A stretch of DNA of 64,000 nucleotides from SAR202 cluster bacterium (GTDB lineage Bacteria > Chloroflexota > Dehalococcoidia > Lucifugimonadales > UBA6927), in NCBI GenBank assembly GCA_022447855.1, contig JAKUTX010000008.1, positions 3,987 through 67,986 of the forward strand, read 5' to 3'. Below, piece by piece: positions 16,051 to 39,662 of this stretch. The translations under genes were made by a program, and so were the position numbers. Below the pieces are notes generated by a model. The model was given only the letters and a program-made list of their open reading frames with translations, was not told the origin of the DNA and ran no database searches. Each line of letters starts with the position of its first letter. Within the stretch, counting starts at the first letter, position 1.

Positions 16051-16299
16051 ATGTTCCTAGCAAAAATTTATATCAGCTTCAAATCATCTGTAAATGACCC
16101 AGAGGGCAGTACAATTCAATCTGGTCTTGCACAATTAGGGTTTGAATCCGTTACATCTGTTAGATCAGGAAAATATTTTGAGATCAAAATTTGCGAAACA
16201 GAGAAGAAAATTGCATCCGAAAAAATTCAAGAAATGTGTGACAAACTTTTATCAAACCCAGTCATAGAAACTTACAAGTTCGACCTAGTTTCTATATAA
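16051..16299 (+). CDS. purS: phosphoribosylformylglycinamidine synthase subunit PurS
   Basis: 82 aa. Size and the VNDPEG...GF..V..VR.GK.FE pattern match PurS. No purQ or purL nearby. Confidence 0.85.
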   Translation: MFLAKIYISFKSSVNDPEGSTIQSGLAQLGFESVTSVRSGKYFEIKICETEKKIASEKIQEMCDKLLSNPVIETYKFDLVSI

Positions 16300-16318
16300 G
16301 CACTAACAAAATTTTAAA

Positions 16319-16918
16319 TTACCCAGTAATTGTACCCTTTGTACTTGGAATCTCTCCAGATCTACGTGGATCAATATCCAGTGCAAACCTCATTGCCCTT
16401 GCCAACGCCTTAAATATTGCTTCGGATTTATGATGGTTATTAACACCTGAGATCAATCGTACATGCAAATTAAATGCACCTTCTCTAGCCATAGATTCTA
16501 GAAGATGTTCAATTAAATCACCGCTCAAACCACCTAAATCAACATGGCCAATTTCAGTATTTAACACCGAATATCCTCTACCTCCAAAATCAACCACTAC
16601 CAAAGCTAAAGCTTCATCAAGAGGTACATATGAGTGTGCCATACGATTAATCCCTTTTGCATCACCTACAGATTGCCTAAGAGCCCTTCCAAGAGTTATT
16701 CCTACATCTTCTACTAAATGATGATATCCCAAATCTATATCACCAGATGCCTCAACTTTAACATCCATTAATCCATGTCTAGATAGCTGAGCAATCATAT
16801 GATCCAAAAATGCATTACTAGTATTTATCTTATATTGGCCTGTTCCGTCTAAATTTATTTCTACGGAAACATTAGTTTCATCTGTTTTCCGTTCAATTTT
16901 TGCTTTTCTACTAGTCAT
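16319..16918 (-). CDS. hisB: imidazoleglycerol-phosphate dehydratase
   Basis: 199 aa. RKTDETNVSVEINLDG, DHMIAQLSRHG and HHLVED motifs. Monofunctional, with no N-terminal phosphatase domain. Confidence 0.95.
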   Translation of the reverse strand: MTSRKAKIERKTDETNVSVEINLDGTGQYKINTSNAFLDHMIAQLSRHGLMDVKVEASGDIDLGYHHLVEDVGITLGRALRQSVGDAKGINRMAHSYVPLDEALALVVVDFGGRGYSVLNTEIGHVDLGGLSGDLIEHLLESMAREGAFNLHVRLISGVNNHHKSEAIFKALARAMRFALDIDPRRSGEIPSTKGTITG

Positions 16919-16940
16919 TTTTCAACACTCCATAATTAGA

Positions 16941-16950
16941 TTAACACATT
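16941..16950. repeat. left copy of the 10-bp direct repeat TTAACACATT flanking the his-operon insert
   Basis: An exact copy recurs at 17958-17967. Together they bracket the composition-shifted, ORF-poor segment. Confidence 0.6.
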
Positions 16951-17957
16951 GAATATCCGAAACTCCATACAATATCAGGGTCCCTCATTCCATATCATGC
17001 CCTATCACCACCATTTCGAGTACCTTCATCCTTAGAAGATTTGCGTCGCTGTAAACAGCCTCGCGCGGAGTTAGGTACATCTTGAGGTACATTCTGTGGT
17101 AAAAATCTAATTTTCGGTTAAATTGTGGTCAGGTTTTCTAGCTTCCAGTTGGCTGGGTTTGGGTGGTTTGTAAGTATTCATTGTATTACTGGTGGAGAGG
17201 GTATGTCTTAGTGATTGTGGTTTGTTGTAGTGGATACGCGTGACAGTTCAGAAATTATAAAAAAGGACGGTGCAACTAGTGGTTAGCCTGATGAGGGCTA
17301 AAAGATGACGGTCTACCACAGGACAAGAAACCTACTCTTGGGATAACCACAGATTCAGTTCCTAAAAGGCAGGCCGATAGCCACGTCACAACGTCCCATA
17401 TAGAAGTATATCATCCATAAAGCCATATACAAAAGGGACGGTGTAACAGTGGTTATGCGTGTCACAACGTCCCAAAGAGGACGCATCACAACGTCCTTGT
17501 ACAAGATAGCATATTTATAAAAGGGGCGTGTATAATCCGACCATTATGAGAAAATTTCTATTTATTGTGGGTGTGCCTTTCATAGGTTTTATTTTGTGGT
17601 GTGTTGGCTTAGCTCTCATTATGGCGCACATTGTTCAGAAGAATCCGAACCTCTTTGTACTAGCATTGGTATATACAGGTTTAGCGATTGCAGGGACTGT
17701 ATTCTTTACTAGAAAGATTCTTAAAAAAGCCGGTTACTCCTGAGTAGTGTTACTGCTCCGTGAGAGACTGAGAATGTGGACGGAAAACGTTCTGAAGTAG
17801 GGAATAATTTCCTGATTGATAACCGTGATAGTTACGCGAGCACTACCCTACTGGACGTCCTCTTGCAAACCGCTGTACTATCGCTTACATTACGGATATA
17901 GCGTGAGACTTTCATGCTGTTTATAAGCCACGGTCTCCGAGTGTTCTCGATTTCTTC
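16951..17957. mobile_element. candidate non-autonomous insertion (about 1 kb) between hisC and hisB
   Basis: Flanked by the 10-bp direct repeat. Removing it leaves a 38-nt hisC-hisB spacer that keeps the GGAG before hisB. G+C is higher than its surroundings: by hand count, 59/120 at 17281-17400 versus 19/60 at 16861-16920. Many GGACG/CGTCC hairpins. No transposase. Confidence 0.35.
17546..17743 (+). CDS. small two-TM membrane protein encoded inside the insert
   Basis: 65 aa from the ATG at 17546: MRKFLFIVGVPFIGFILWCVGLALIMAHIV...LFVLALVYTGLAIAGTVFF, two hydrophobic helices. TATAAT at 17531-17536 lies just upstream. Opposite strand to the his genes. Confidence 0.35.
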   Translation: MRKFLFIVGVPFIGFILWCVGLALIMAHIVQKNPNLFVLALVYTGLAIAGTVFFTRKILKKAGYS

Positions 17958-17967
17958 TTAACACATT
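17958..17967. repeat. right copy of the 10-bp direct repeat TTAACACATT
   Basis: Identical to 16941-16950. Lies 6 nt from the hisC stop codon. Confidence 0.6.
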
Positions 17968-17973
17968 AGAAAA

Positions 17974-19053
17974 TCAGACCAAACGTTTTAACACACTAAT
18001 CATCCGATCAGTTTGTGCAGGCGTACCAATTGCCGTCCGGAAACAGTTTCTTAATGATTCATTATTAAACGTACGCACAAAAATACCTTCGCTTTCCAAG
18101 CCACTTACAACAAAATCTTTTTTGTATTCTTTTACTTCACACAATATATAATTCCCACTTGAAGGGACAGGTTCCAAACCATCAATATCAACTAATAAGC
18201 TAAACAACCGATCTCTTTCATCTACTATACTTCGAACATTCTTTAGCAAAAACGCAGAATCATCAATAGAGGCAATCAATGCGTCTTCGGCAGTTACACT
18301 TAAATTGTATGGTGACTTTATATCCATTAAATGGTTGACCAAAATTGGGCTCATAATTCCATATCCCACTCTTAATCCTGCAAGCCCGGCCCATTTACTC
18401 ATAGTTCTAAGTATCACCAAATTATCAAACTCATCTATTAAATCCGCAAAGGTAAAATTGCAGAATTCATAATAGGCTTCATCCAAAACTACAAGAACAC
18501 CAGTATCAAGTAATGACCGTATTTCAAATTCCGAAGCCATATTTCCTGTAGGATTGTTTGGAGAAGCAACAAATATTATCTTTGTACGATCATTGATTGT
18601 TTTAAGAGCATCTTCAATATCAATTCCAAAACTGCTATCTCGCCTAGACAACTGAACTTCAGCTTGGTAAATCCTCGCACAAAATGCATACATCCCAAAT
18701 GTTGGTTCAAAATCCAAAATATTGTCTCCTGGTTCCACAAATAATCTGAACAACAAATCAATCAATTCATCACTTCCCGCTCCTGCGACCAAACAATCTT
18801 GGGGAAATCCAGTATATTCACTTAATTTATTACGAACTTTTCTTTGTAAAGGATCCGGGTAAACATGAACGGCAGAATTCGACACTACTTCAGAAACTTT
18901 CCCCGAAGGGCCATAAGGATTCTCATTACCATTTAATTTAATGATTTGATCAATTGGTATACCTGCTTTCTCCGCAAGCATTTCTGGAGGATCTACAGGA
19001 TCATATGAAGTGACATTACGCAAATGAGGTTTAATTAAATCTTCTATACTCAA
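17974..19053 (-). CDS. hisC: histidinol-phosphate aminotransferase
   Basis: 359 aa. LNGNENPYGPS, SPNNPTG and RTMSKWAGLAGLRVGY (PLP lysine) motifs. Confidence 0.9.
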   Translation of the reverse strand: MSIEDLIKPHLRNVTSYDPVDPPEMLAEKAGIPIDQIIKLNGNENPYGPSGKVSEVVSNSAVHVYPDPLQRKVRNKLSEYTGFPQDCLVAGAGSDELIDLLFRLFVEPGDNILDFEPTFGMYAFCARIYQAEVQLSRRDSSFGIDIEDALKTINDRTKIIFVASPNNPTGNMASEFEIRSLLDTGVLVVLDEAYYEFCNFTFADLIDEFDNLVILRTMSKWAGLAGLRVGYGIMSPILVNHLMDIKSPYNLSVTAEDALIASIDDSAFLLKNVRSIVDERDRLFSLLVDIDGLEPVPSSGNYILCEVKEYKKDFVVSGLESEGIFVRTFNNESLRNCFRTAIGTPAQTDRMISVLKRLV

Positions 19054-38708: not shown

Positions 38709-39662
38709 ATGGCAACAAATCAGTTAAAACTCACAAACACCTCTACCAATTTAAATCACCATATGAAAATGTTTTTAAATTTCATGCACGTGGAAAGAGG
38801 TGCGTCTTCAAACACCATCGCTGCTTATCAAAACGATTTATCCCAATTTTCTAACTTCTTAAAATTACAACACCAACCTGATTTTATTCATTGGGAAAAA
38901 GTACATGCTAAACACATATCTGAGTTTATGATCTTCCTACAGGATAGAGGATATTCAGAAACATCCAGATCAAGAAAATTGGCATCAATTAAATCATTCT
39001 TTTCTTTTTTACTAAATGAGGGAATAATCCCAGAAGATACATCAATTGACCTTAGTTCACCTAGGTACTCACCTACTTTACCTCATCACATTTCTGTAAG
39101 CTCAATGAACAAACTTTTAGAACTCCCAAAACTAGCGAAGCCATCTGACAAAATGCACCTAATCCTTCGAAATCACTCAATGCTGGAATTAATGTATGCA
39201 ACAGGAATTAGAGTTAGTGAAATGACTAATCTTAATCTTAAAGATCTTAATATTTCAGAATCGTATCTTCGAGTAATTGGTAAGGGAAACAAAGAACGCA
39301 TCTTGCCAGTATATTCCGAAGCTCTTTCATCCGTTGAATCATGGATTCAAGCGGGTAGAGTCAAAATCTTGGGCCATAAATTTTCCAACGCATTATTCCT
39401 TAATTCAAGAGGTAATAGATTAACTAGGCAAGGATTCTGGACGATTCTCAAACACGAGTCAGAACGGGCAGGAATTTCAGAATCTGTTACACCTCATACT
39501 ATTAGACATAGCTTTGCTACCCATTTACTCCAAGGAGGCGCATCATTGCTGCATGTTCAATCACTGTTGGGACATTCAAGTATTTCAACAACTCAAATTT
39601 ATACACATTTGACTGACGAACATGTAAGATTAGAGTATCATAAGGCTCATCCGAGAGCGTAA
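38709..39662 (+). CDS. XerC/XerD-family tyrosine recombinase
   Basis: 317 aa. SAM-like N-domain. Catalytic ATGIRVSE, HTIRHSFATHLL and LGHSSISTTQIYTH. Flanked by housekeeping genes. Confidence 0.85.
   Translation: MATNQLKLTNTSTNLNHHMKMFLNFMHVERGASSNTIAAYQNDLSQFSNFLKLQHQPDFIHWEKVHAKHISEFMIFLQDRGYSETSRSRKLASIKSFFSFLLNEGIIPEDTSIDLSSPRYSPTLPHHISVSSMNKLLELPKLAKPSDKMHLILRNHSMLELMYATGIRVSEMTNLNLKDLNISESYLRVIGKGNKERILPVYSEALSSVESWIQAGRVKILGHKFSNALFLNSRGNRLTRQGFWTILKHESERAGISESVTPHTIRHSFATHLLQGGASLLHVQSLLGHSSISTTQIYTHLTDEHVRLEYHKAHPRA

Follow-up and report, generated by a model that had tools for sequence, protein, structure and literature searches.

The question raised by this locus is what separates hisC from hisB in the histidine operon of a SAR202 cluster bacterium (contig JAKUTX010000008.1), and how it came to lie there. 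The stretch analysed, called the window throughout, comprises 64,000 nucleotides (nt), and the operon runs on its minus strand, referred to below as the his strand. From the hisZ-like gene through hisG, an open reading frame (ORF) for a Zn-dependent phospholipase C-like (PLPC-like) protein and hisD to hisC, successive genes are 4, 11, -4 and 16 nt apart, whereas hisC and hisB are 1,055 nt apart. An earlier reading of the letters alone, the original prediction, had described the his genes as 16 nt or less apart or overlapping except at hisC-hisB, and remeasurement gave the same distances. The segment in this gap is a derived insertion with a duplicated target, which entered after the split from the sister lineage, since the sister species and the outgroups have short spacers and the window differs from the sister-species contig by a single gap.

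The inserted segment occupies positions 16951-17957 (1,007 bp, 42.8% G+C) and is bounded by two exact copies of TTAACACATT (AATGTGTTAA on the his strand), a hisB-proximal one at 16941-16950 and a hisC-proximal one at 17958-17967. Both copies had been noticed earlier at these positions, and there are no others in the 64 kb; 0.40 copies would be expected by chance, and at least two copies were obtained in 6 of 100 shuffles. The hisC gene (17974-19053, minus strand; TIGR01141, 322.6 bits against a cut-off of 276.6) is intact, and its stop codon lies 6 nt before the repeat. On the other side, the original hisB leader is kept downstream of the insert (16919-16940, minus strand), with GGAG at 16931-16928, and aligns to the sister-species spacer. 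It is followed by an intact hisB (16319-16918, minus strand; PF00475, E = 9e-53; NF002111, 241 bits against a cut-off of 231). Once one repeat copy and the interior are removed, 38 nt are left, with GGAG 9 nt ahead of the hisB ATG; recomputation thus reproduced the residual spacer given by the original prediction. Both junctions are clean, with neither loss nor filler sequence.

The proposal that a related genome should show an empty site is borne out by the sister species. Its contig L013 encodes HisB and HisC proteins 87% and 83% identical to those of the window and has complete synteny (hisG, PLPC-like ORF, hisD, hisC, hisB, purS, DUF3105). From hisC stop to hisB start it reads TGA-tttttc-AATGTGTTAA-ccttatgatggagttttaaaat-ATG, which is the predicted 38-nt spacer with one copy of the 10-mer. 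Two metagenome contigs of the sister lineage, L041 and L042, are identical to L013 across the hisC-hisB spacer, so that three independent contigs carry the single copy that corresponds to the hisB-proximal repeat. In a global alignment of the window with L013 there is one gap, of exactly 1,017 nt, that is, 1,007 plus 10, as a target-site duplication would leave it. The corresponding empty junction predicted for the species itself is GGTCTGATTTTCTAATGTGTTAATCTAATTATGGAG.

Among 12 more distant Dehalococcoidia, hisC and hisB are 32-110 nt apart, and no sequence like the insert was found between them. These short spacers, together with those of the sister species, exclude a conserved leader shared by all relatives, the case that had been named as refuting an insertion. 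The reverse history, in which the segment would be an ancestral hisB leader or regulatory region that relatives lost by precise deletion between the 10-bp repeats, is extremely improbable. Direct repeats can mediate such deletions, and the close outgroup consists of one lineage only; against this stand the short spacers in all 12 more distant Dehalococcoidia, a G+C content and a hairpin motif alien to the rest of the window, and the need for a gain plus a loss where one gain suffices.

The inserted DNA is compositionally foreign and practically devoid of coding sequence. The whole spacer has 41.9% G+C, compared with 37.0% in hisB (the original prediction, from hand counts, had also found the spacer richer than hisB), 36.4% in hisC, 37.0% in coding sequence and 36.5% in the window. 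The G+C content of the insert is reached by only 0.9% of 1,007-nt windows, and the other intergenic regions have 14-38%.

Population data show the insert fixed both in the species and in a lineage 92% identical to it. The sequence collection has 137 indexed blocks with an identical HisB protein, and hisB is invariant across the population. The ten longest contexts with this protein (L001-L010) have unchanged gene order and a hisC-hisB gap of 1,044-1,053 nt. Eleven further contigs (L028-L038), reached through a small ORF of the insert that is described below, all come from the same his locus. All 21 conspecific contigs, full-length or partial, have the insert at this one site: L001-L010 and L028-L037 do so at 98.6-99.5% identity to the window, and L038, of the other lineage, at 92%. 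The related genomes are titled Dehalococcoidia, one of them SAR202 cluster, and one source of the small ORF is Tara. Relatives of HisC are sparse: conspecific sequences at 99%, one sister lineage at 83% and nothing else above 63%.

Several local features of the insert were also recorded. When the window is compared with L038, divergence in the left arm (16951-17200) is about 3-fold that of the centre. L038 has a 12-nt tandem duplication, TTGTGGTCAGCT, at window 17122/17123, and the window itself has the tandem AGGTACATCTTG/AGGTACATTCTG at 17073-17096. Four independent metagenome contigs (L032, L033, L035 and L036) all start at window 17159-17171, inside a G/T-rich part of the insert that is dense in single-nucleotide polymorphisms (SNPs); this common break points to heterogeneity among strains, or to a repeat, as a source of trouble for assemblers.

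How the segment entered is a separate matter, and the length of the duplication bears on it. On the his strand the insert ends in TTC, just inside the hisB-proximal copy, and in the sister species the same three letters stand before the 10-mer, so the original target duplication may have been 10-13 bp long. The hisC-side flank in the window reads TCT, not TTC, and no outgroup settles the repeat length. A near-copy of the target 10-mer lies in hisC, 30 nt from the insertion point: at 17988-18007 the 3' end of the gene reads TTAACACACTAATCATCCGA, 80% identical to the hisB-side junction (the 10-mer plus the first 10 nt of the insert). It is probably due to chance or to target preference.

The explanation favoured here, which we hold tentatively and at a little less than an even chance, is that the insert entered the 38-nt hisC-hisB spacer as a non-autonomous passenger. 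An enzyme supplied in trans, no longer identifiable, would have cut both strands in a staggered fashion, about one helical turn apart, and gap repair would have produced the target duplication of 10 bp, possibly up to 13 bp. What is present today would be an immobile relic and not an active element. A staggered cut followed by gap repair is the classic source of a duplication this long. Target duplications of about 10 bp are characteristic of the cuts made by the IS4 family of insertion sequences (IS) (PMC2266710), and the insert resembles that family in having one of about this length, one helical turn. It also resembles the non-autonomous IS derivatives, especially those of the IS4 family, known as MIC231 (a mobile insertion cassette, MIC) and as MITEs (miniature inverted-repeat transposable elements), in that it has no transposase, carries passenger sequence and lies in an intergenic site. 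Its length falls within the size range of MICs, 0.7-3 kb (PMC6199540).

The ends and the copy number of the insert weigh against this explanation. Terminal inverted repeats are required by the known transposases that make staggered cuts. When the first 50 nt of the insert were compared with the reverse-complemented last 50 nt, the local score was 9, with a shuffle mean of 11; with the repeat copies included, the alignment scored 11, again at shuffle level. The weak, gapped inverted similarity of the ends mentioned in the original prediction is therefore present as described but not significant at scores of 9-11. The ends read GAAUAU (plus strand) and GAAGAA (his strand) and have only GAA/TTC in common. 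A third, end-like site at 17632-17653 was also considered; it scored 22, a score equalled by 15 of 500 shuffles, and is not significant after four tests.

No second copy was found in the 64-kb window by self-BLAST, in the related loci, or by BLASTN of the insert against phage and plasmid collections. Five scans of viral contigs (for the hairpin, the tandem motif, the left end, the inner hairpin and the circular junction) gave no copy either; the sole viral-contig match, L040, is a repeat within a G+C-rich coding region and unrelated to the insert. A metagenome scan for the left end of the insert preceded by a base other than T, which skips the his locus, gave no convincing copy. One candidate from the metagenomes, L039, has a 20-mer at the contig tip beside the adapter-like AAGAGACAG (nt 1190-1227); it was rejected as chance or a chimera, such matches being about as numerous as expected by chance. 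In another public assembly contig, L011, nt 1-46 are leftover Nextera adapter. Searches in protein space with two reading frames, including a 62-aa his-strand frame over the hairpins, found no copies beyond this locus. From the window, the related loci, the viral contigs, the phages, the plasmids and the one targeted metagenome scan, the insert is likely to be single-copy.

A scan of 59 ORFs of the window revealed no transposase, and the only recombinase among them is of the XerD type, a tyrosine recombinase encoded between lgt and uvrC at 38709-39662 on the plus strand (TIGR02225, 330.7 bits against a cut-off of 329.6), which looks like a housekeeping gene. The end sequences of the insert are missing from the viral contigs as well, and no cognate autonomous element with the same ends was found there or among the 59 ORFs. 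Six-frame searches of the insert against Pfam (E up to 1) and PHROG (E up to 0.1) gave no relevant protein signal, including for transposase, integrase and phage proteins. These scans uphold the earlier statement that no transposase or integrase is present, and an autonomous insertion sequence was rejected because neither a transposase ORF nor a pseudogene was seen in them.

The earlier proposal of a non-autonomous or novel type of element may be right; no second copy, terminal inverted repeats or partner element was found that would place the insert in a mobile family. The defining feature of MICs and MITEs is a pair of terminal inverted repeats read by a cognate transposase, and they come in families, whereas the insert has GAA/TTC only at its ends and was found once, without a partner IS. 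The insert is not filed as a MITE or MIC because it fails on the terminal inverted repeats.

The missing terminal inverted repeats are directly explained by illegitimate, microhomology-mediated integration, which we consider rather unlikely, though with an appreciable share of the probability. Here a small foreign circle would have recombined through a shared AATGTGTTAA, or a replication template switch would have re-entered 10-13 nt upstream. Both variants leave the shared sequence on each side and need no transposase, terminal inverted repeats or family, and the single-copy, orphan status of the insert is accounted for too. The match between the insert-end TTC and the sister-species nucleotides before the 10-mer fits either microhomology at re-entry or a 13-bp shared core, but such a core needs two later substitutions, since the hisC-side flank reads TCT. 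Moreover, events at 10 bp of homology are very rare, a donor sequence was not found in the searches made, and the perfectly clean junctions resemble those of enzymatic transposition.

An entry as part of something larger was also weighed. A prophage, or an integrative and conjugative or integrative and mobilizable element (ICE/IME), could have used site-specific recombination to enter at an att core of 10 bp; internal deletion would afterwards have removed integrase and cargo, leaving attL and attR around a relic of about 1 kb like the cis-mobilizable elements (CIMEs); this is improbable. The direct repeats match the one copy of the empty site, as attL and attR would, terminal inverted repeats are not expected, mobility genes are lacking in CIMEs and other integrase-less remnants as they are here, the G+C content is foreign, and an 11-mer that is repeated in the insert could represent arm-type sites. 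However, traces of integrase, excisionase and phage proteins are all absent in six frames, and the 11-mer cluster lies 310-550 nt from either insert end and does not adjoin the core. There is no dyad symmetry around the 10-mer in the empty site, and the one tyrosine recombinase of the window is a XerD equivalog. The insert is also far smaller than CIMEs and similar remnants and has no integrase pseudogene, and its target is no tRNA, tmRNA or dif-like locus, nor any other conserved gene end.

Other classes of mobile element were tried and rejected at the junctions. An integron cassette at a secondary site would have GTTRRRY cores at its junctions, which here read GTTAAGA and GTTAATC, and an attC palindrome abutting its boundary, whereas the palindromes are central; the integrase IntI does not make a 10-bp duplication. 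On inspection of the sequence, the junction and core do not fit integrative mobile elements exploiting Xer (IMEX) at dif, nor an origin from circular Rep-encoding single-stranded (CRESS-type) DNA.

The insert has a single organised feature, a cluster of hairpins at 17255-17505, the sole part of the spacer in which a sliding-window scan found significantly stable folding; taken whole, the cluster has z = -4.4 on the his strand and z = -3.7 on the plus strand. Three related units with the common arm GGGACGUUGUGAC make it up, all in the same orientation on the his strand; the unit can be written as GGGACGTTGTGAC...GTTRCACCGTCC. The largest, Domain C (17264-17397, minus strand), is a branched structure of 134 nt closed by GGGACGUUGUGAC and GUUGCACCGUCC, with a minimum free energy (MFE) of -46.1 kcal/mol and z = -2.6, and is followed by a U6 run (17264-17259) and then a perfect TATAAT (17259-17254). 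Hairpin B (17435-17473, minus strand; MFE -18.4 kcal/mol, z = -4.0) has a 13-bp stem with one mismatch, the 5' arm GGGACGUUGUGAC, a 13-nt loop and the tail UUUUGUAUAU, which is UUUUG in the his-strand RNA; it resembles both an intrinsic terminator and a shortened Domain C. Hairpin A, GGACGUUGUGAUGCGUCC (17478-17497, minus strand; MFE -10.6 kcal/mol, z = -3.3), is the third and shortest copy. The 11-mer mentioned above, TCACAACGTCC, occurs three times (17386, 17462 and 17486), in addition to two imperfect inverted partners. Neither the other 63 kb of the window nor any related locus contains the hairpin motif GGACGTTGTGA, which arrived with the insert.

This cluster is in part like the repetitive extragenic palindromic (REP) units and bacterial interspersed mosaic elements (BIMEs) and like intrinsic terminators, in that imperfect palindromes of 20-40 nt with a recurring arm and U-runs lie in non-coding sequence. 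In contrast to REP and BIME units, the motif is not found elsewhere in the 64 kb of the host, the three copies have the same orientation, one of them has grown to a branched domain, and there is no context of the REP-associated tyrosine transposase (RAYT) type. Palindrome-associated transposable elements (PATEs) derived from IS200/IS605 and ORF-less group II introns share with the insert a length of about 1 kb or less, hairpins, and the lack of terminal inverted repeats and of an ORF. Neither of them duplicates its target, and the hairpins of the insert are central and not subterminal. An ORF-less group II intron was rejected on further grounds: no Rfam intron model matched at E up to 10, and the ends are not 5' GUGYG.

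A bolder idea places the determinant of mobility or maintenance in this cluster, with its GGGACGUUGUGAC arms, and not in the ends. The insert would then be the first recognised member of a non-autonomous class that has no terminal inverted repeats and makes duplications of a helical turn, and the mobilising enzyme would be one not yet linked to such elements. We regard this as very improbable.

Whether the insert now contains a maintained gene is a question of function and not of entry, and such a gene appears unlikely. In one version it would be a small RNA on the his strand, with transcription of Domain C starting close to 17397, downstream of a TTGTAT-16-TATACT, and stopping at the U6 run. 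In the other version it would be a pair like a type I toxin-antitoxin system, in which a hydrophobic 65-aa ORF on the plus strand is accompanied by antisense or trans-pairing hairpin RNAs. The stable folding given above counts in favour, as does the pattern of variation. Pairing on the his strand uses G.U pairs, which are A.C mismatches on the opposite strand, and at 17388 and 17315 polymorphisms from G.U to G-C preserve the pairing on the his strand alone. Five substitutions among seven haplotypes fall in predicted pairs, and four of them leave a wobble or Watson-Crick pair on the his strand; variable sites are scarcer in paired columns (5 of 138) than in unpaired ones (10 of 113). These data lend modest support to a constraint at the RNA or hairpin level on the his strand. 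A fully compensatory pair change is absent among the seven haplotypes. The centre of the insert (17201-17743) is diverged by 3-4% between the window and L038, compared with 10% in the left arm; this low central divergence is, however, haplotype-structured, most contigs having 0/345 differences and three having 9/309 or 9/343.

No RNA family was found with Rfam 15 at E up to 10, the top match being MDR-NUDIX at 24.2 bits against a threshold of 54.9. The structured RNA gene offered as an option by the original prediction is a candidate: a 240-nt hairpin cluster is real, but its support is of the wobble type alone and an Rfam match is absent. The same search gave no match for several other classes: a hammerhead (on account of a CUGAUGA motif), T-box, riboswitches, HEARO, group I and II introns, Y RNA and 6S RNA. 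An origin from a tRNA or tRNA-like sequence was rejected too, as ARAGORN returned nothing despite a D-loop-like AGUGGUUA in the arms and a UUGUGAU loop that resembles the anticodon loop of tRNA-His. The tRNA-His that the genome itself encodes, with the loop UUGUGGC, is not similar to the insert hairpins.

As for protein, the longest spacer ORF on the his strand has 49 aa (17355-17504), in line with the earlier statement that none there reaches 60 aa. The plus strand has one of 71 aa (17528-17743), or 65 aa from the ATG at 17546. This 65-aa ORF (17546-17743, plus strand, antisense to the his operon) is hydrophobic, with two predicted membrane-spanning helices in a plausible, positive-inside topology. 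Among 5.8 billion clusters and 1.84 billion representatives, its homologues are same-locus copies only. No Shine-Dalgarno sequence precedes it, and its 11 SNPs in the population are 3 synonymous and 8 non-synonymous, a non-synonymous to synonymous ratio of about 1 by the neutral expectation of 23% synonymous. Since it has homologues at this locus only, no Shine-Dalgarno sequence and SNPs that give no hint of purifying selection, it is probably no conserved gene. A type I toxin-antitoxin module was rejected on these points and for lack of a family, its antisense RNA being hypothetical.

The favoured passenger explanation also has a consequence for hisB. Transcription from hisZGDC is probably attenuated or terminated within the insert, because the his strand carries hairpins with U-runs and a C-rich, unstructured tract. 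A transcript coming from hisC would meet the three hairpins with their U-runs first and some 160 nt of C-rich, unstructured RNA after them, and less read-through would be expected. The tract in question (17100-17260, minus strand) separates the hairpin cluster from hisB. Rich in C, poor in G and with almost no structure, it has a plus-strand GC skew of +0.48, and 120-nt his-strand windows from 17080-17160 reach an MFE of merely -1.6 to -5.8 kcal/mol; it resembles, as far as sequence can suggest, a Rho-utilisation (rut) site. Expression of hisB would then depend on residual read-through or on a promoter in the hisB-proximal 300 nt of the insert, where the candidates are the TATAAT at 17259-17254 and AAGACA-18-TACAAT at 17209-17180. 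A hybrid promoter over the hisB-side junction was rejected, since TTGTAT and GTTAAT are 21 nt apart, a wrong spacing.

The terminator and promoter roles of the insert sequences are putative, and two results count against them. Promoter-like matches occur at chance density in this A+T-rich genome, and a consensus terminator scan called none at the hairpins, whose loop and stem geometry exceeds the limits of the scan. The insertion is tolerated, since hisB is intact, has kept its Shine-Dalgarno sequence and is invariant in the population. In all, the insert is a real, fixed, orphan relic that is probably inert.

The rest of the operon was surveyed as well. On the minus strand, the hisZ-like gene lies at 22093-23289, hisG at 21099-22088, the PLPC-like ORF at 20338-21087 and hisD at 19070-20341, while hisH, hisA, hisF and hisIE are outside the window. 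The last gene of the operon, hisB, is followed by the convergent purS, only 19 nt lying between the two genes (16299-16319). The HisZ-like protein (in 21099-23289, minus strand) is under the cut-off of both TIGR00443 and TIGR00442 and lacks the anticodon-binding domain. The usual partner of HisZ is a short-form HisG; the HisG encoded after the HisZ-like gene is the long form, of 329 aa, with the HisG_C regulatory domain. The PLPC-like protein has 249 aa (Pfam E = 1e-9), matches no NCBIfam model, and its ORF overlaps the start of hisD by 4 nt. This ORF lies between hisG and hisD in all 13 Dehalococcoidia relatives that cover the position (39-78% identity), and its product is a candidate for the otherwise missing histidinol-phosphate phosphatase. 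Further along the window, a 290-nt intergenic region of 13.8% G+C (25776-26065) lies between an unannotated 318-aa ORF (24819-25775), which is downstream of it, and a two-component system, and is upstream of the response-regulator gene.

The importance of the insert as a mobile element hinges on further copies with independent duplications. As an event in the history of an operon, the split can be seen cleanly, the filled and the empty alleles both being known at base-pair resolution. The essential downstream gene hisB has remained intact and invariant behind 1 kb of foreign DNA with terminator-like hairpins, and how it is expressed after the split is directly testable in marine metatranscriptomes.

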